Virus record (IMG/VR): IMGVR_UViG_3300045690_000033
Direction: 5' to 3' (one strand)
Source of the DNA: a virus
DNA length: 37,774 nt
Shown: one piece after another, positions 3,280-11,247 of the stretch
How positions within the stretch are numbered: the first letter of the stretch is position 1
Layout: the number at the start of each line of letters is the position of its first letter
Position numbers and translations under genes: made by a program
The notes under the pieces: model-generated
What the model was told of the DNA's origin: nothing
Database searches by the model: none
Seen by the model: only the letters and a program-made list of their open reading frames with translations

Positions 3280-3594
3280 ATGTTTAAAAGTCAACTAGCA
3301 CAAAATAGATACAAAGAGCGGTTAAAAAGATCCTTAATCGACCAGCTTGATCAACAAAATATTAGTATTACACCGTTTCTCGATACGATAGATAGATATA
3401 TTAATCTCTGGGAAACGGCTATTTCTTTAGAAGAAGATATCGCTGATAATGGTGTGCGATTGAATAACGGTAAGAAAAATGAATCTGTTGCTTTATTAGT
3501 ATCAGTAAATAAACAAATGGGATTAATGCTTGATAAATTAGCGATCACTCCAGAGATAGTGGGTGATGCAAATGAACCAATTCCTGAGTTATAA
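3280..3594 (+). CDS. terS: Terminase small subunit (P27-family-like)
   Basis: ATG at 3280 after GAGAGGAGG. About 104 aa, directly upstream of and overlapping terL. Sequence style matches P27-type TerS. Confidence 0.7.
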   Translation: MFKSQLAQNRYKERLKRSLIDQLDQQNISITPFLDTIDRYINLWETAISLEEDIADNGVRLNNGKKNESVALLVSVNKQMGLMLDKLAITPEIVGDANEPIPEL

Positions 3595-5260
3595 ACATAT
3601 AAGGAAATGGTTTGACGCGATTGACGCTCGAGAGGTTGTTGTTTGTAAAGACCAATTGCTGTTAAAAAAATATTTGGAAAAACGAGTTTTTACACGGGAG
3701 GATATTTATTTTGACGAACAAATGGTTGAAGATTCTATTAACATTCCTGCCACTTATTTTCCTTTTGAATTGATTCCTTGGGAAAAATTTGTGCAGTGCT
3801 TTATCTATGGTTGTCGATGGAAAAAAGATCATACACTCGTTTTTAATAGATTCCTCACGTTAATGGGGCGCGGAAACGGTAAGACAGGTTATGCTTCATG
3901 GAACAACTTCTTTCTACTGACTGCAAAACATGGAATTAAAAATTATGATATTGATATTTTTGCCAACAATGAATCCCAAGCAAAGACAAGTTTTGAGGAT
4001 GTCTACCAAGTCATAAAAACAAACCCAGGTTTAAAAAAATCATTTTATATTTCGAAAGTATCTATTAGAAATTTAGCAACAAATAGTGAACTTAGATATA
4101 ACACTGCAAACGCTCGTACGAAGGATGGAAAACGTCCAGGGGCCAATCGCTTCGATGAAATCCATGAAAATGAAGACTACGCAACGATGAATGTTGCGAC
4201 TTCAGGCGGCGGTAAAATCCAAGACTACAGAGAATTCTACGATACGACAAACGGCGCTGTTAGAGGCGGACCATTAGATGATCTAATTGAAGAATCAATG
4301 ATGATTTTTTCGGGTGAATTAGGAATTGATAAAGAAGGTGCAGAATTTTCAAGTTTATTCCCGTTCATTTGTCGTTTAGACGATGATACGGAAGTTGATG
4401 ATCCGACTTTATGGGAAAAAGCTTGTCCAACAATCAATTACAACCAAGATCTAAAACGAAAGATGTTTCAAGAATACTCACAAATGCAACGTAATTCAGG
4501 GTTAAGATTAACATTTATGACTAAACGTATGAACAAACCTATGGAAGATACTAGGTTTGCTGTGGCGACGTACGAAGACGTTCTTCACACAAGAGAAAAA
4601 GAGTTTCCTGAAAGAATGGAAGAAGTTATTGGAACAGTTGACTTTGCAGATCGACGAGATTTTGCGTCATGTGGGCTACTTGGGAAGTATGAGAAAGATA
4701 TTTATTTTAAACAGCACACGTTTATTCATGAATCTGCATTGAAACTCCAAAATATAAAGAGAGAAATTATCGATATTTCATTGGATCAAGGGAAATCACA
4801 AATTGTTCACGGGAAGAATATTGAAGCTGAATACATCGTCGATTGGTTTCTAGAACAGTCAAAAAAGCATTATATTAAAAAGATTGCCATGGATATGTTC
4901 AGAGCTAAAATACTGAAACCTGCATTGGAAGAGGCCGGCTTTAATGTTGAGATTGTCCGAAGCGGTAGTGTTACGCACGGCATGCTTAAAGATTTAGTTG
5001 ATGATTTATTTATTAATCAGCGTTTATTTTTTGGAGACGACGCTATTATGCGGTGGTATTGTATGAATGTTTACGAAGAACATATTGCAAATGGAAATAT
5101 TAGATATGAAAAGATAGACGGAGAAACCAGAAAAACAGATGGTTTCTTTTCTTTTTTGCATGGACTTAATTTTATCGATGATATCTATGATTCTGCACCA
5201 ATCAAAATAAAAAATTTAACCAGTAATGCTGCTGGTGGTTTTAAACCATTAGTTTTTTAG
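3563..5260 (+). CDS. terL: Terminase large subunit
   Basis: 565 aa. Walker-A-like LMGRGNGKT, a DEIHE-type Walker B, and a C-terminal nuclease region. The start could also be ATG 3566 or 3572. Confidence 0.9.
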   Translation: MMQMNQFLSYKHIRKWFDAIDAREVVVCKDQLLLKKYLEKRVFTREDIYFDEQMVEDSINIPATYFPFELIPWEKFVQCFIYGCRWKKDHTLVFNRFLTLMGRGNGKTGYASWNNFFLLTAKHGIKNYDIDIFANNESQAKTSFEDVYQVIKTNPGLKKSFYISKVSIRNLATNSELRYNTANARTKDGKRPGANRFDEIHENEDYATMNVATSGGGKIQDYREFYDTTNGAVRGGPLDDLIEESMMIFSGELGIDKEGAEFSSLFPFICRLDDDTEVDDPTLWEKACPTINYNQDLKRKMFQEYSQMQRNSGLRLTFMTKRMNKPMEDTRFAVATYEDVLHTREKEFPERMEEVIGTVDFADRRDFASCGLLGKYEKDIYFKQHTFIHESALKLQNIKREIIDISLDQGKSQIVHGKNIEAEYIVDWFLEQSKKHYIKKIAMDMFRAKILKPALEEAGFNVEIVRSGSVTHGMLKDLVDDLFINQRLFFGDDAIMRWYCMNVYEEHIANGNIRYEKIDGETRKTDGFFSFLHGLNFIDDIYDSAPIKIKNLTSNAAGGFKPLVF

Positions 5261-5275
5261 AGAGGAGGTGGAGTA

Positions 5276-6454
5276 GTGGGAGTTGTCCAAAGAGCAGTAG
5301 ATTACTTTACTAAGCGTTCAGTTGTTTCGATTGAAGAATATTTTTGTAAACTTCAAGTGGACTATGTTTATCGGAAGTTTGCAATTGAGACTTGTATTGA
5401 TTTAATTGCTAATGCATTAAGTAAAGCAGAATTCAAATCTTACGAAAAAGGTAAAAATATAAAAAACGAGATGTATTATCGGTTAAATGTTTCACCGAAT
5501 GCTAAAACAAATGCGACGGAGTTTCGTAAAAAAATGATTCGAAGACTTATTTTTTACAATGAAGTATTAATCGTTTCGCCGTCAAGTTCAACCTCAGAAT
5601 TATTTGTAGCCGATAGTTGGAATGTTACTGAATATGGGTTAAAAGATGATGTATTTTCTCAAGTTCAAGTTAATAATATTGTTTTAGAGAAAACTTTCAA
5701 AGAAAGTGACGTTATCTATATTAAGTATGCTGACGAACATATACGTCAATTGGTAGACGCCTATTATGGGGCATACGGAAAGCTAATTTCATCAGCAATG
5801 AATGTATACAAACGATCCAATGCACGAAGATATGTGCTGAAAGGCGATTTATTCAGGCCGCAAGATGATACGGCACAAGGCCAAATAAACGAAATGATGA
5901 CTTCTCAATTCAAATCATTTATGGAAGCAGACAATGCAGGAGCAGTGTTTCAGTTAGACAACAAAGCAGAGTTGCTTGATTTCAGCGGGAATTTCCAATC
6001 GAATTCACGAGATATAAAAAACTTAATAGATGACATCTACGAGATGACCGCGGCAGCGTTTCACGTTCCGAAAAACTTACTCAAGGGAGATATGAGTGGT
6101 TTATCGGATCAAGTGGACGCTTTTTTGATGTTTGAAATCATACCGATAGCTGAATTAATACAAGATGCTTTTAATGCAACGATTTATAGCATGGATGAAT
6201 ATTTATCTGGTGATTATTTGAGAGTCGATACCACCATGATAAAAATAGCTAGCTTCAAAGATTTGGTTGATGCCATCGATGTTGGCATTCGAAATGGCGT
6301 ATTTACGATTAACGAAGGCAGAGAACGCGTGGGTAATGATCGCTCCGATAAGCCAATGGCGGACGAGATTTTCATAACTAAAAATAATGAACAGTTATCG
6401 AAGGGAGGTGACGCGAATGACGACAATGAAGACGGTTCTAGCAGTCAAAAATGA
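5276..6454 (+). CDS. Portal protein (HK97 family)
   Basis: 392 aa directly after terL. GTG start after GGAGGTGGAG. Confidence 0.85.
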   Translation: MGVVQRAVDYFTKRSVVSIEEYFCKLQVDYVYRKFAIETCIDLIANALSKAEFKSYEKGKNIKNEMYYRLNVSPNAKTNATEFRKKMIRRLIFYNEVLIVSPSSSTSELFVADSWNVTEYGLKDDVFSQVQVNNIVLEKTFKESDVIYIKYADEHIRQLVDAYYGAYGKLISSAMNVYKRSNARRYVLKGDLFRPQDDTAQGQINEMMTSQFKSFMEADNAGAVFQLDNKAELLDFSGNFQSNSRDIKNLIDDIYEMTAAAFHVPKNLLKGDMSGLSDQVDAFLMFEIIPIAELIQDAFNATIYSMDEYLSGDYLRVDTTMIKIASFKDLVDAIDVGIRNGVFTINEGRERVGNDRSDKPMADEIFITKNNEQLSKGGDANDDNEDGSSSQK

Positions 6455-7113: not shown

Positions 7114-8238
7114 ATGACAGTAAAAAATTTAAAAGGTGTTTCAGCAACGAGTGATAAATTAATGAGTGCATTTAAAGACGGAAACGAAGAAAACTTTGGA
7201 GAGGCAATGGTTGTCTTATCGAACGAAATTCAAGATCGAATTTTAAAAGAAGCTCAAACCGCAAATCAGGACCAATTAGTTCTAATGAACCGTGGTCAAC
7301 GCGTACTTACTAGCAAAGAAACGAAATTTTATAACGAAGTCGTCAATAACGAAGGATTTGCTGGCGTAGAGGAATTAGTACCGGCAACAGTCTTTGAACG
7401 TGTATTTGAAGACTTAACAAACGCCCATCCATTGCTTCAAAAGATTAATTTTGTGAATACAACTAGCGTTACGGAATGGATCGTCGGTCGTGGTGTGAAC
7501 CCTGCTTGGTGGGGGAAATTATGTGAAGACATCAAACAGGTATTGGACAATGGGTTTGATGTGATCAACATGAAACAATTCAAATTATCAGGTTATATGC
7601 CTTTATGTAAGGCAATGCTTGATTTAGGTCCTGAATGGATTGACCGCTATGTTCGGACTGTTTTAGTTGAATCGCTGCAAATCGCTCTAGAACAAGCCAT
7701 TGTAGACGGTACAGGTAAAGATCAACCTATCGGTATGATGCGTGATATGTCCTCTCAAACAGACGGAGAGTACAAAGAGAAGACTGCAGAAGCAGTTACC
7801 TCTTTAGATGCAACCGTCCTCGGAGGTCTAATGGCTCGTTTATCAAAACTAACAATTGAAGGTGTGACGGACCCAATTTACCGCAATGTCAACCCTTCTG
7901 ATGTTGTGCTAATTGTCAACCCAACTGATTATTGGTCAAAAGTCTTTCCTGCAAAAACAGTTTTAACTGCTAATGGTGAGTACGTTCAAACACTCCCTGT
8001 TCCAGTTTCGGATTTACAATCAGTAGCTGTGCCAGAAGGTAAAGCTGTAATTGGTGTAGCTTCAGACTACTTTATGGGGCTAGGATCAACTCTAAAGATT
8101 GAAGCTTCTGACGAGTACCACTTCGTAGAAGACGAACGTGTCTACTTGGCTAAACAATATGCGAATGGTTTGCCAAAACGAAATGATAGTTTCATTGTGT
8201 TGGATATTTCTAAATTAGCACCTACGCCGTCAAAATAG
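7114..8238 (+). CDS. Major capsid protein (HK97 fold family), short form
   Basis: 374 aa after the protease, in the HK97-type gene order. Confidence 0.85.
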   Translation: MTVKNLKGVSATSDKLMSAFKDGNEENFGEAMVVLSNEIQDRILKEAQTANQDQLVLMNRGQRVLTSKETKFYNEVVNNEGFAGVEELVPATVFERVFEDLTNAHPLLQKINFVNTTSVTEWIVGRGVNPAWWGKLCEDIKQVLDNGFDVINMKQFKLSGYMPLCKAMLDLGPEWIDRYVRTVLVESLQIALEQAIVDGTGKDQPIGMMRDMSSQTDGEYKEKTAEAVTSLDATVLGGLMARLSKLTIEGVTDPIYRNVNPSDVVLIVNPTDYWSKVFPAKTVLTANGEYVQTLPVPVSDLQSVAVPEGKAVIGVASDYFMGLGSTLKIEASDEYHFVEDERVYLAKQYANGLPKRNDSFIVLDISKLAPTPSK

Positions 8239-8300
8239 TGGCCCCTGAGGTAGGAAAAGTAACTCCTACCACTGATGGGGCGTCAATAGAATTAACGTAA
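7114..8300 (+). CDS. Predicted long form of major capsid protein via -1 frameshift (+21 aa: IVAPEVGKVTPTTDGASIELT)
   Basis: The -1 frame is open from 8214 to TAA 8298..8300. The added tail matches the one reachable from the major tail gene at 14 of 21 positions. Confidence 0.5.
8232..8281 (+). promoter_or_regulatory. Putative -1 frameshift signal: A_AAA_TAG slip site, 5-nt spacer, two-tier hairpin
   Basis: AAAA at 8232..8235 abuts stop TAG 8236..8238. Hairpin outer stem is 8241..8245/8277..8281 (gcccc/ggggc); inner stem is 8249..8254/8265..8270 (ggtagg/cctacc); loop is 10 nt. The same architecture occurs at 10562..10614. Confidence 0.55.
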
Positions 8301-8312
8301 GGAGGAAAAGGA

Positions 8313-8495
8313 ATGGCACGAACATTTGAAATTGACAAAAAAGATGGGACCAAAGTTTCTGAAGGAGCTAGCCCGTTAGCAATTACTGGACTAACAGCAG
8401 GAACGGTAGTAAAAAAGGGTGACTATATCGCCGTTGCAGTAGAGTCTGGAAAAAAATCTGATCCCGTTGATATTCCAGCTTTCACGGTCAATTAG
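8313..8495 (+). CDS. Small Ig-like/decoration-type protein (60 aa)
   Basis: Strong RBS AAGGAGG. Beta-rich sequence ...SPLAITGLTAGTVVKKGDYIAVAVE...VDIPAFTV resembles the C-terminal two-thirds of a bacterial Ig-like domain. It is in the same frame as the capsid -1 extension. Confidence 0.6.
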   Translation: MARTFEIDKKDGTKVSEGASPLAITGLTAGTVVKKGDYIAVAVESGKKSDPVDIPAFTVN

Positions 8496-8522
8496 TCTTT
8501 GAAATTAAGAGGGGGCTAACTT

Positions 8523-8840
8523 GTGGAAAAAAAGGATATATCTGACGGTCTTATGAGTGAAGTGAAACAAAAGTTGTATATTTCATGGGATGAAGACGAT
8601 GAACAGATTAAAAACATCATTCTAAGGGCGGCGACCTATATTCAAACAAAAGTATCTGAAACACTGAGCTTTGATCAAGGTACTCCTGAGTATGATTTGT
8701 TATTGGAAAGATGCAGGTATGACTGGAATAGTGCATTGGATGAATTCGAAAGGAATTATTCTAGCGAGATCGTCTCATTTATTCAACATTATGCTTTGGT
8801 TGACTGGCGTAGAAGACACGGTGTTTTCAATGGTGAATAA
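8523..8840 (+). CDS. Head-tail connector (gp6-like adaptor)
   Basis: GTG after AGAGGGGG. About 105 aa in the canonical position after the capsid gene. Confidence 0.6.
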   Translation: MEKKDISDGLMSEVKQKLYISWDEDDEQIKNIILRAATYIQTKVSETLSFDQGTPEYDLLLERCRYDWNSALDEFERNYSSEIVSFIQHYALVDWRRRHGVFNGE

Positions 8841-9183
8841 ACGAATTAGAGAAACCTTTAACGATGGAAATTTATTGGTTAAAACGCAAGTGACGAAGAG
8901 AAATGAGATAAAGAAAAAAATTGGGGCTGGCTATGAAAATATAGCTGGTCCTTTACGTTTTAGAAACCTTTCGATTCGTGATAGCGATTTGACCTCAATG
9001 GATGCCATGGATTCGAAATTATCCAGAAAAGTAAAGACGCCCTTTCATCCAGTCGTTAAACAATACAACAAAGATAAGTATTTTATCGTGATTGATCAAA
9101 CGAGGTATAACGCTATTTATGTTGATTACGATAACTACTATCTATATTTCTATTTAGAAAAAGTGGGTGATTTTGTTGAATGA
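8830..9183 (+). CDS. Head closure protein
   Basis: ATG 8830, in frame with track ORF 8671..9183 and overlapping the upstream stop. About 117 aa in the canonical position. Confidence 0.55.
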   Translation: MVNKRIRETFNDGNLLVKTQVTKRNEIKKKIGAGYENIAGPLRFRNLSIRDSDLTSMDAMDSKLSRKVKTPFHPVVKQYNKDKYFIVIDQTRYNAIYVDYDNYYLYFYLEKVGDFVE

Positions 9184-9571
9184 TCCTGAGAAAAAGCGAT
9201 TGAAAAATCAAACAATTGAAAAAATGTCAGTTTTGTCAGAGTATTTCAAGTTGCCGACTTACCAAGATTTTCTAAGTGAAGATGAGAAAAGTGATCTAGG
9301 TGATAGTTACGACTATTTCATTTTCGAAGAAGATGAAATCACGATCGTTGACAAGGATAAGTATACAATGGGTCAAAATGTGTACATCACTTTCTATTCT
9401 GAAAATAGAGACTACCTAACGGGGGATCAATTGGATGTTATCGCCTTAATGCATAACAACCTTTTCCGATTTAATGGAACCGATGTAAATCATCTGAAAT
9501 TAGACAACCAGGATCGCTATATCGATCAGGTTGTTTTTTCTTTTGTTCGAATTCTAAGGAGTGGTTGTTAA
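9167..9571 (+). CDS. Neck/head-tail joining protein (family not recognised)
   Basis: GTG start overlapping the upstream gene. Assigned by position in the neck module. Confidence 0.5.
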   Translation: MILLNDPEKKRLKNQTIEKMSVLSEYFKLPTYQDFLSEDEKSDLGDSYDYFIFEEDEITIVDKDKYTMGQNVYITFYSENRDYLTGDQLDVIALMHNNLFRFNGTDVNHLKLDNQDRYIDQVVFSFVRILRSGC

Positions 9572-9972
9572 TGTCTAACGGCTGGGAATTAACTCTTCAA
9601 GGGCATGATCAATTATTAGCGAAAATGGAAAAATACTCTTCTCAAAGCGAGAAGATAGTCAATCAAGTTTTGAAAGAGAGTGGTTCGAATATCGCTGTTA
9701 AAAAAATTGAACAGCGTATCCCAGTCTCAGAAGATCAACTCAGAAGTGGCCGCAAACATGCTAAATTTAGCAATCCACTGAAAGTTGAGCATATTAATTT
9801 AGGCTTTATTGTACGACCCAAAAAGAAGTTTGACTATGTTAAATACCCAGACTTAGGGATTGGACATTCCACAAACAATCAGCCTGAAGAGTTTATGAAA
9901 CGTGGGTTGCAAATCGCGCTTGATCCTATAACCGAAGAGATCGTAAAAGGGTTCGATAAATTAAATGAATAA
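9571..9972 (+). CDS. HK97 gp10-family tail-completion/neck protein
   Basis: ATG 9571 (TAATG overlap). The N-terminus MSNGWELTLQGHDQLLAKMEKY is in the style of gp10-family proteins. Confidence 0.55.
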   Translation: MSNGWELTLQGHDQLLAKMEKYSSQSEKIVNQVLKESGSNIAVKKIEQRIPVSEDQLRSGRKHAKFSNPLKVEHINLGFIVRPKKKFDYVKYPDLGIGHSTNNQPEEFMKRGLQIALDPITEEIVKGFDKLNE

Positions 9973-9989
9973 AGGAGAGAGAATATAAC

Positions 9990-10571
9990 ATGGTAAATAC
10001 GATTGTGACAACATTTGATAATGTAAGTATTAAAAAAATCGCCTTCATGTTTAAAGGTGCAGAGTCAGCAGACGTGACTGATTGTAATGGTCAGTTGGAA
10101 GGCGAAACAGAAATGCAAACAATTGAAAAAAAATGCGGGGCGGCGGTCGTGAAGACCAAGTCCAAACCTGTAGGAATGACAGTGACCATTACCGCACATG
10201 TACCTGTCGTCGTGTTCCGAAATTTCTATGGCTTAAAACATGATGAACGATTAAAACCGGGCATCTATTCATATGGACCTGATTCAGTAGGTATCGATTT
10301 TGCTTTAGCTGCAGAGGTTGTCGACGATTTCGAAGAAAACTCAAAATTATTAGCTTTCTTATCGGCAACATCGAATACGGGTTTAACCTTTACTATCGAA
10401 AATGGTGCAGATGAAGTTGCGGCGTTAGAACTAGAAACTAAAATTATGACTGATCAGTTTGGAAAGTATTATCATGAAGCGATTGTTGCTGAATTAGATG
10501 AAGACCTAACGGATGCATGGATGAACACGTTGTCGCCTGAAGTGATTAAAAAGGCAGACGCGGGAAAATAA
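9990..10571 (+). CDS. Major tail protein, short form
   Basis: 193 aa immediately before the G/GT chaperone pair. RBS AAGGAGAG. Confidence 0.75.
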   Translation: MVNTIVTTFDNVSIKKIAFMFKGAESADVTDCNGQLEGETEMQTIEKKCGAAVVKTKSKPVGMTVTITAHVPVVVFRNFYGLKHDERLKPGIYSYGPDSVGIDFALAAEVVDDFEENSKLLAFLSATSNTGLTFTIENGADEVAALELETKIMTDQFGKYYHEAIVAELDEDLTDAWMNTLSPEVIKKADAGK

Positions 10572-10633
10572 CAGCCCCTACTATAGGAAATGTTACTCCT
10601 ACAGTTGATGGGGCAACCATAGACTTAACTTAA
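9990..10633 (+). CDS. Predicted long form of major tail protein via -1 frameshift (+21 aa: ITAPTIGNVTPTVDGATIDLT)
   Basis: The -1 frame is open from the slip site to TAA 10631..10633. Confidence 0.55.
10562..10614 (+). promoter_or_regulatory. Putative -1 frameshift signal: G_GGA_AAA heptamer at the stop codon, 5-nt spacer, two-tier hairpin
   Basis: Classical X_XXY_YYZ heptamer GGGAAAA at 10562..10568 with zero-frame codons GGA AAA, followed by TAA. Hairpin outer stem is 10574..10578/10610..10614 (gcccc/ggggc); inner stem is 10581..10587/10598..10604 (6 of 7 bp); loop is 10 nt. Confidence 0.65.
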
Positions 10634-10660
10634 AAGAGAGGGATTCCTCTCTTTTTTTAT
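10634..10660 (+). terminator. Intrinsic terminator after the major tail gene
   Basis: Stem aagagagg/cctctctt (10634..10641 / 10646..10653), loop gatt, then a T run. Confidence 0.75.
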
Positions 10661-10678
10661 TTGAAAGGGGAACTATCG

Positions 10679-11053
10679 ATGATTGAAGAATTATTAGAAG
10701 ATTATTCAAAACTAGAATTAAACAATGGGGAGATTGTAACCCTTGAACCGAAGTTGAATTTAAAAAAATTAATGTTAATCAATCGGGATTTCAATACAAA
10801 TGAATTTGCGAAAATGTCTGTAGGCAATGAGCAAATGGATGTCAGTGTCATGCAAGGAGCAAAAGCAGTTTATGTGGCCTACAGACAAGCGAATATGAAT
10901 GAATACATGAGTTTTGATGAATTTATTGATCATTGGTATTTTGATATGGCTCAAGCAACAATGATCTACAATCTCATGATGTTTAAAAAAGTTCAAAATG
11001 ACTACCAGAAAGCTTTTGAGAAGGCAAATAAAGAAAAAAAGCTTCAAAAATAA
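10679..11053 (+). CDS. Tail assembly chaperone (G-like)
   Basis: ATG 10679 after AAAGGGGA. Position is between the major tail protein and the tape measure. Confidence 0.75.
   Translation: MIEELLEDYSKLELNNGEIVTLEPKLNLKKLMLINRDFNTNEFAKMSVGNEQMDVSVMQGAKAVYVAYRQANMNEYMSFDEFIDHWYFDMAQATMIYNLMMFKKVQNDYQKAFEKANKEKKLQK
11035..11041 (+). promoter_or_regulatory. A_AAA_AAG -1 slippery heptamer for the G-T fusion
   Basis: Zero-frame codons AAA AAG at 11036..11041. The -1 frame is open from there into ORF 11056..11247. Confidence 0.7.
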
Positions 11054-11055
11054 AA

Positions 11056-11247
11056 ATGCCAAAATTTCAAGTGAAAACGTGGGTTGATGTCTATTCGATG
11101 TTGACGGACGTTTTTTCTTTGTCTCACGAACAGGCTATGAGTAATTTGCCGTTAGACGACATCCTTCAAATTGCATACAACAAGCAGGCTTATGACGGAT
11201 GGATGAGTTATGCGGTTAGAAAAGAACAAGAGAAAGGAGGAAAATAA
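11056..11247 (+). CDS. T segment of the tail chaperone (expressed as a G-T fusion by -1 frameshift)
   Basis: Lies in the -1 frame relative to G, with no stop between the heptamer and 11056. Confidence 0.65.
   Translation: MPKFQVKTWVDVYSMLTDVFSLSHEQAMSNLPLDDILQIAYNKQAYDGWMSYAVRKEQEKGGK

Follow-up and report, generated by a model that had tools for sequence, protein, structure and literature searches.

The 37,774-nucleotide viral DNA of IMG/VR record IMGVR_UViG_3300045690_000033 (hereafter the window, meaning the whole of this stretch) holds the structural module of a siphophage or prophage of the Enterococcus type, in which one fibronectin type III (FN3)-like domain appears to be encoded in two separate pieces. 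The first piece is a 21-codon segment, the tag, which lies in the -1 frame at the 3′ end of the major capsid protein gene and is repeated at the 3′ end of the tail tube gene; the second is ORF60, a free open reading frame (ORF) of 60 codons that follows the capsid tag (Table 1). Sequence alignment and structure prediction show that the tag has its homologue in strands A and B of an FN3-like domain, and ORF60 in strands C to G of the same domain; the break is in the B-C loop. This probably reflects a two-piece decoration of the virion, in which tags added by frameshifting to the capsid and tail tube proteins would be completed in trans by free ORF60, and the sequence comparisons and models make docking of ORF60 onto the tags by strand complementation likely. 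Immunoglobulin (Ig)-like domains appended by frameshifting are textbook knowledge for the structural genes of phages, and the general class was reportedly described by Fraser and colleagues in 2006. To our knowledge, such domains have always been described as complete and added in cis, whereas here there are two pieces. The open-access literature that was searched contains no description of a split domain.

Homologues in which the domain is uninterrupted provide the main evidence for this homology. They have a tag-like stretch, a loop of 6-8 residues, and then a core similar to ORF60, as in P0103 (...ELTPTKDGFTVKLTGSNEDSTFRIYDKSG...). The same order is found in P0147, P0034, and P0154 and in the tandem repeats of P0009, P0072, and P0121; exceptions are the internal domains of P0084 and P0118, which lack a preceding tag-like stretch. 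Pseudo-fusions of the upstream tag with the core of split loci match the uninterrupted domains column for column. Within the capsid tag, EVGKVTPT aligns with FN3 strand A and GASIELT with strand B, and the strands assigned to ORF60 are C (TFEIDK), C′ (KVSEGA), E (LAIT), F (YIAVAVE), and G (VDIPAFTV). The fold was analyzed on P0103 as a stand-in for the tag/ORF60 pair. In the AlphaFold2 model of its domain (predicted local distance difference test [pLDDT] 92.8, predicted template-modelling score [pTM] 0.79), the residues equivalent to the tag are found as two strands, 7-14 and 17-23 (pLDDT 97 and 90 as block means), the split point falls in the loop 24-29, and strands C, C′, E, F, and G come from the part equivalent to ORF60. 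Nearly all the best Foldseek matches of this model in the PDB are FN3 domains aligned over the full length (2e3v, NCAM FN3, TMq 0.69), and a sequence profile matches fibronectin FN3 (E 5e-4) with the tag on strands A and B. The seven-strand A-B-E/C′-C-F-G sandwich is found in the model of this uninterrupted homologue only. The fold is FN3-like and not that of the Big-type bacterial Ig domains.

An earlier note on this DNA, made from its letters alone, had already proposed that the tag corresponds to the first one or two β-strands and ORF60 to the rest, and this is supported, with two strands in the tag, by the homologue alignment, by AlphaFold2 and Foldseek, by the co-occurrence of tag and core in both directions, and by the slip site of phage A2 (see following). 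Its statements about the sequence (tag, TAA, ribosome-binding site, ORF60, frames, and tail tag) were all found correct on recheck, and the uninterrupted relatives that it had suggested looking for are those listed above. It also described tags on both capsid and tail tube, which are indeed paralogous (8235-8297 and 10568-10630), and a tail gene that is tagged yet has no Ig ORF of its own; no Ig-type ORF follows the hairpin located after the tail tag. Its assignment to a bacterial Ig-like domain holds for the Ig-like sandwich and fails for the Big type, since AlphaFold2, Foldseek, and the profile all indicate an FN3-like domain.

ORF60 matches phrog_341 (E 2.5e-12) and phrog_14018 (E 1.2e-7) from profile position 1 onwards. 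The identical protein is present on 201 contigs, and an exhaustive profile search with the family gives 166 representative clusters. Among the 149 usable family representatives, 138 have a tag-less start, the domain setting in at or before residue 14 of a small protein. Hundreds of phages have the split layout, which is kept in cultured phages of Enterococcus (over 100), the Kayvirus phages of Staphylococcus, phages of Lactobacillus, and numerous prophages. Hence, the split is the dominant state of the family and is not peculiar to this phage. Homologues of ORF60 match Pfam fn3 only below threshold (E 0.004-0.1), at fn3 positions 32-73, and their "ITGLxxxTxY" motif falls at positions 52-63 in these weak matches. 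A sequence search of the PDB gives no solved member of the family. Both PHROGs and the GenBank homologues carry the name "major tail protein", and in Efquatrovirus the core ORF that follows the capsid gene is labelled "major tail protein" or "tail tube protein", apparently a misnomer. ORF60 is not the tail tube protein, which is encoded by ORF 9990..10571 (phrog_117); the name is apparently an annotation carry-over, because a partial FN3 domain of 60 residues cannot form a tube. The ORF60 homologue of Enterococcus phage vB_EfaS-271, gp11, is a free and abundant 7-kDa protein that was detected by mass spectrometry with 94% coverage (PMC7503890).

Tag and core co-occur almost completely, whichever of the two is used to select the loci. 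A hidden Markov model (HMM) of the tag, with 21 positions and built from 25 tags, gives 165 matches scoring 10 bits or more in 90 loci selected by their core, every one on the coding strand and none on the opposite strand. All core-selected loci, about 90, have terminal tags, usually two each. Typically, one tag of the pair stops 4-26 nt 5′ of the ATG of the core and the second is located ~2.2 kb away, on the other structural gene. Each tag ends 0-2 codons before a stop and belongs to a short segment in an alternative frame, which overlaps a long ORF at the 3′ end of that ORF. The alternative-frame tags of the core-selected loci are all in the -1 frame, and a few slip contexts are seen repeatedly: GTC_AAA_A|TAR, G_GGA_AAA|TAR, GCG_GGG_GAG|TAR, A_AAA_AAG, C_CCA_AAA, and T_TCA_AAG. 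A second route is in frame, the tag being simply the C-terminus of the upstream protein (loci L001, L042, and L083). Conversely, when loci are picked by the DNA pattern of the tag alone, 99 have terminal tags, and a core ORF is present in 88 of these, directly downstream in 76. Ten of the others are truncated, and the remaining one, L193, is the only tag locus that lacks a core ORF despite having at least 3 kb on both sides. At L193, an ORF for a reverse transcriptase/maturase of the group II intron type occupies positions 3942-5777, directly 3′ of the tagged capsid gene.

The module is found with two capsid families, in siphophages and myophages, and in at least three host genera. In the window it follows an HK97-type capsid gene, and in L002 it follows a tail-tube gene; the second tag of L002 is on a 119-aa ORF just 5′ of a Phage_cap_E capsid gene and not on the capsid gene itself. 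At the nucleotide level, megablast of the window against the phage collection gives a single match, to Enterococcus phage 4995_1, with 77% identity across the capsid gene, and megablast of related loci against the same collection gives no match, whereas protein-mode searches did recover relatives: Enterococcus phages make up 115 of the 127 records found in this way, and a core-type query (P0033) matches 317 Staphylococcus phage records. The Efquatrovirus phages SANTOR1 and vB_EfaS-271 use a different shift. There, a +1 shift at CCC_TAG would add STPPVVGQVTP.ETSATIELS to both capsid and tail-tube proteins, at sites that are unannotated (3570-3640 and 5940-6010 in SANTOR1, L090; 8020-8090 and 10405-10475 in vB_EfaS-271, L210).

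In the window, the capsid ORF ends with CCG TCA AAA TAG, the 0-frame stop being at 8236-8238. The P-site tRNA-Lys would move from AAA at 8233-8235 to AAA at 8232-8234 with the stop codon in the A site, and many loci have the same context, GTCAAAATAR, where their tagged capsid and tail genes end. The tail-tube ORF ends with GCG GGA AAA TAA. The expected junction peptides are IVAPEVGK and VTPTTDGASIELT. The two tags form a 69-nt direct repeat with 75% identity; they have 11 codon differences, of which 4 are synonymous and most of the others conservative, and they are the only tag matches in a six-frame scan of the window.

The tag codons look as if they were used twice, for β-strands and for a hairpin that stimulates frameshifting. 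The outer stem of the capsid hairpin (GCCCC/GGGGC) is made of the Ala-Pro and Asp-Gly-Ala codons, and its inner stem (GGUAGGA/UCCUACC) of the Val-Gly and Pro-Thr codons. When the 52 nt that lie 3′ of the slip site are folded for each sequence and compared with shuffled versions, frameshift tags have a mean minimum free energy (MFE) of -17.1 kcal/mol and a mean z of -3.0, with z < -2 in 73% of them. In-frame tags with the same motif have -8.0 kcal/mol and z +0.1 at an equal GC content (0.49). The pairing is kept with other bases in other lineages, as in CACCGTC/GACGGTG, GCGCCATC/GATGGCGC, and CCGTCGG/CCGACGG. Besides the window, loci L002, L061, and L090 have such a hairpin in their tag codons.

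Table 1. Features of the capsid-to-tail region of the window, in order of position.
Feature	Positions	Strand	Evidence
Major capsid protein gene, 374 aa, HK97 fold	7114..8238	+	PF05065 E 1.4e-13; phrog_10 "major head protein" E 3.6e-54
Proposed -1 slip site TCA_AAA_TAG (A_AAA_TAG at 8232-8238)	8230..8238	+	Sequence reading; putative slippage
Capsid tag, 21 codons IVAPEVGKVTPTTDGASIELT in the -1 frame, and TAA 8298-8300	8235..8300	+	Tag HMM 32.9 bits
RNA hairpin within the capsid tag, 5 nt after the slip codon; probable frameshift stimulator	8241..8281	+	MFE -20.9 kcal/mol, z -2.69
ORF60 Shine-Dalgarno AAGGAGG, 7 nt 5′ of the ATG and partly within the tag stop codon	8299..8305	+	Sequence reading
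ORF60, 60 aa, FN3 core without strands A and B; ATG 8313, TAG 8493-8495	8313..8495	+	phrog_341
Tail tube (major tail) protein gene, 193 aa; 0-frame stop TAA 10569-10571	9990..10571	+	phrog_117 "major tail protein" E 1.8e-15
Canonical -1 slippery heptamer G_GGA_AAA, stop codon directly 3′	10562..10568	+	Sequence reading; GGGAAAA|TAR also in other tagged genes
Tail-tube tag ITAPTIGNVTPTVDGATIDLT (10568-10630), -1 frame, and TAA 10631-10633	10568..10633	+	Tag HMM 30.5 bits
Terminator-like hairpin (10632-10655) and T-run, directly 3′ of the tail-tag stop	10632..10663	+	Annotated terminator in the equivalent position of Listeria phage PSA

The mechanism that we favor would work as follows. A minority of ribosomes would shift to the -1 frame, helped by the hairpin in the tag's own codons, and a fraction of the capsid and tail-tube subunits would thus bear a C-terminal tag. 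ORF60 would be translated apart, from its own strong ribosome-binding site. Because only strand E of the A-B-E sheet is present in it, ORF60 should be unable to close the sandwich alone; as an open sandwich it would therefore bind the tag, whose hairpin would give strands A and B. The result would be a noncovalent complementation of the fold in trans, and capsid and tail would both display a complete FN3 domain at their surface. A single small gene could in this way serve two structural proteins, and the efficiency of frameshifting would set the occupancy. The displayed domain would probably provide weak surface adhesion, as has been proposed in the literature for other phage Ig-like domains. 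A covalent isopeptide link of the SpyTag kind was considered and rejected. There are no conserved reactive residues: the family alignment has no invariant Lys, Asp/Asn, and Glu, other tags have Asn, Thr, Ser, or Glu in place of the Asp, and Lys10 of the core is not conserved. Since this triad is not conserved, such a bond is not expected.

Several observations weigh against completion in trans or limit its strength. Frameshifting at these sites is a reading of the sequence, and the hairpin is not uniform: in the tail tag of the window it is not the MFE structure, the MFE fold being different and weaker (z -1.8), and RNAalifold gives no consensus structure for an alignment of 30 tag sequences anchored by codon, the 5′ arm being displaced by one codon from lineage to lineage. 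Pfam gives no match for ORF60 or for the tag+ORF60 fusion, neither of which reaches the fn3 gathering score. The sample in which gp11 was detected is a purified lysate and not purified virions. The counts of tags and cores overstate the number of independent events, because the loci are phylogenetically related. The L049 group has three tags per core gene, which bears on stoichiometry. Finally, P0024 is a natural protein made of a core with a C-terminal tag. Its AlphaFold2 model supports the proposed role of the tag in showing it as two strands with pLDDT of about 90-95, joined to the core by a confidently placed linker, but it pairs the tag with the core in cis; its Foldseek matches to FN3 are partial, as expected with a non-native strand order. 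Proteins of this type could then be self-sufficient, closed circular permutants. The linker from strand G to strand A in core+tag proteins has 5-8 residues, as in ordinary tandem FN3 arrays, and such a short linker would favor pairing in trans. In short, homology shows an incomplete fold of the core and co-occurrence suggests its completion in trans, while the cis model of P0024 leaves an alternative.

A first rival explanation is that tag and ORF60 act independently. ORF60 could be a small cement or decoration protein that needs no partner, or a small structural protein of another kind, and the tag could have a role of its own as a short C-terminal hairpin (e.g., in inter-subunit contacts) or be a by-product of a regulatory frameshift and its RNA hairpin. 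This is consistent with the folding of a core with its own tag in cis, with three tags for one core gene, and with the tag coding sequence being also a stable RNA hairpin. We nevertheless regard it as improbable, as tag and core correspond by homology to neighbouring parts of a single FN3 domain, a core without A and B keeps one strand of a three-strand sheet, and co-occurrence is near complete both ways. Furthermore, the in-frame tags retain the peptide motif without the RNA structure, which argues that the peptide itself is under selection.

Much less probable is that the tags are untranslated, the 69-nt elements being only RNA structures such as attenuators or terminators placed after the capsid and tail genes. 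The hairpins are stable and a terminator does follow the tail tag, but the tag frame is open and stops at the same codon position in every locus, the paralogous tags differ synonymously, recognized slippery motifs lie immediately 5′, and the same peptide is found in frame at the C-termini of ordinary proteins. The extension of phage A2 is also made by -1 frameshifting according to a published review.

The earlier note had offered readthrough of the TAA at 8298 as an alternative. Occasional readthrough would make tag and ORF60 a single cis domain of the capsid protein (...ASIELT*GGKGMARTFEID..., 86 residues), and the start of ORF60 would be irrelevant. The capsid tag, TAA 8298-8300, and ORF60 are in fact in one frame (8235, 8298, and 8313 are all divisible by 3), as are tag and core in L086, and the loop length would be acceptable. 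Yet the frame offset between tag and core, which is 0 in the window, L086, and L042, is 1 in L009, L010, L015, and L020 and 2 in L005, L006, L008, and L049, and relatives with offsets 1 and 2 have extra stops between the two. In addition, the strong ribosome-binding site and the ATG are conserved and the family profiles start with the first residue of ORF60, there is nothing after the tail tag that readthrough could join to it, and a free 7-kDa homologue was detected by mass spectrometry. Readthrough is therefore rejected, being contradicted by the comparison with relatives, and is still less credible than untranslated tags. The same variation in frame, with spacing of 4-26 nt among relatives (11, 12, and 18 nt from stop to ATG in the closest ones), removes the meaning that had been given to the shared frame and to a "Gly-Gly linker" encoded by the ribosome-binding site: the former has a one-in-three chance of occurring, and both are by-products of the ribosome-binding site. 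The other alternative of the earlier note, decay of a complete frameshift-appended domain that was broken by a nonsense mutation and whose pieces now drift as remnants, finds some echo in the complete cis versions of other phages but is likewise rejected as the least credible of all, given the wide conservation of the split architecture in cultured phages and prophages, the large majority of representatives that start with a tag-less core, and the retention of tags on two genes per genome.

The window shares with the known class of frameshift-appended domains a slip site followed by an open and conserved extension in the shifted frame, at 8232-8238 and at 10562-10568; the complete Ig-like domain is absent, the extension being 21 aa long and equivalent to strands A and B. 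The closest parallel is Lactobacillus phage A2, whose gp5B and gp10B result from a -1 shift at the last codons of the major head and major tail genes. The frameshifting is taken from the published review, and the site, C_CCA_AAA, was read from the A2 sequence in this analysis; this heptamer is also found in the tagged relatives iA2, L006, and L007. A2 and the window share the same logic, a sub-stoichiometric C-terminal Ig-like decoration on head and tail. They differ in that A2, which lacks a core ORF, adds in cis a Big_2 domain that is complete (85 aa), whereas the window would add 21 residues and encodes the five other strands in a separate gene. The contrast is sharpest between A2 (L092, 3065-3340 and 5425-5690) and iA2 (L091, 5330-5425 and 7620-7700), which have the same C_CCA_AAA site at the ends of capsid and tail genes: the former has the full Big_2 domain, and the latter a divergent tag of 21-23 aa (SVAPQSVKSEGIKGGVKLTAK) with a separate core ORF. 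In Bacillus phage SPP1, the tail tube protein acquires an FN3 domain through a +1 frameshift, which gives gp17.1* (PMC9022992). This case resembles the window system in having an FN3/Ig-like module on a structural protein, with an occupancy set by programmed frameshifting, and differs from it in that the whole domain is contiguous and there is no trans-acting fragment. T3 is also listed in reviews among the systems with frameshift-appended complete Ig-like/FN3 domains. In Listeria phages PSA, A118, and A500 (Cps-L, Tsh-L), capsid and tail genes are likewise recoded at their 3′ ends, by the +1 shift at CCC_stop that would also produce the Efquatrovirus tags. Their extensions are an HeH motif (Cps-L of PSA) and a complete Big_2 domain (Tsh of A118 and A500). 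Considered as possible tags, the Listeria frameshift products were rejected, as they contain no tag and are accompanied by no core.

Completion of an incomplete Ig-like fold by a strand from another chain is known from chaperone-usher pili, in which the missing strand is the C-terminal G. The likeness is one of analogy only: in the window system the N-terminal strands A and B are missing, and there is neither chaperone nor usher and no sequence homology. For the ORFs scanned in 7114-11053, the Pfam and PHROG matches are to structural proteins or proteins of unknown function only, with no chaperone, usher, or pilin (neighbouring ORFs such as 8671..9183, 9167..9571, and 9565..9972 were not scanned). 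Anastellin is a fragment of a fibronectin FN3 domain without strands A and B. FN3 domains without N-terminal strands are partly open and inclined to β-strand exchange (PMC13233970). An FN3 scaffold with a swapped N-terminal strand (PDB 4m6a) is among the Foldseek matches of the P0024 model, and SpyTag/SpyCatcher provides the concept of a short tag and its catcher. All three are proteolytic or engineered, whereas the window pair is naturally encoded, and the comparison is again one of analogy only.

In relatives, the core may act as a general adaptor, since it carries Big_2, FN3, or HeH cargo or a C-terminal tag of its own. Cores with C-terminal cargo are P0007, P0029, P0015, P0040, P0044, P0049, P0022, and P0035; the cargo is HeH (sub-threshold), Big_2, fn3, and once Big_2 with a phage tail-tip motif. 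These are largely the modules that A2, A118/A500, SPP1, and PSA append directly by frameshifting. Kayvirus provides the most elaborate case. In vB_SauM-515A1 (MN047438; L093, 2319-3728), three consecutive genes hold two tags and two cores: a 210-aa structural protein with an in-frame C-terminal tag, TmpH_1, which is a core followed by Big_2 and a tag, and TmpH_2, which is a core only. This series suggests an ordered chain ending in a cap, and together with the core+tag proteins it suggests head-to-tail chains as in pili. One may then tentatively imagine a natural tag-and-catcher system of virion display, a broader proposal that we consider possible and distinctly less secure than the two-piece decoration itself. 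Short β-hairpin tags, delivered by frameshifting or in frame, would dock FN3 cores that lack A and B; core+tag proteins would polymerize head to tail into chains or fibers on capsid and tail, capped by ORF60 or by TmpH_2 in Kayvirus; and the hairpin in the tag codons would set the rate of frameshifting and so the occupancy.

If completion in trans is true, fold complementation would be a new assembly principle for virion decoration, and it would account for hundreds of genes now annotated as "major tail protein" or "hypothetical protein" in phages of Enterococcus, Staphylococcus, and Lactobacillus. The analysis also brings to light recoding sites that had gone unannotated in therapeutic phage genera (Efquatrovirus), and the tag would supply a short peptide for protein display on phage heads and tails.

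Downstream of the tail tag, the terminator-like hairpin at 10632-10655 separates the tail-tube gene from the chaperone genes; Listeria phage PSA has an annotated terminator in the equivalent position, after tsh-L. Among the chaperone genes, the heptamer A_AAA_AAG is found at 11035-11041, near the end of the phrog_5802 gene (ORF 10661..11053), and the -1 frame stays open from there into the next ORF (11056..11247). This is the canonical G/GT frameshift of tail-assembly chaperones and would make a third -1 site in the window.

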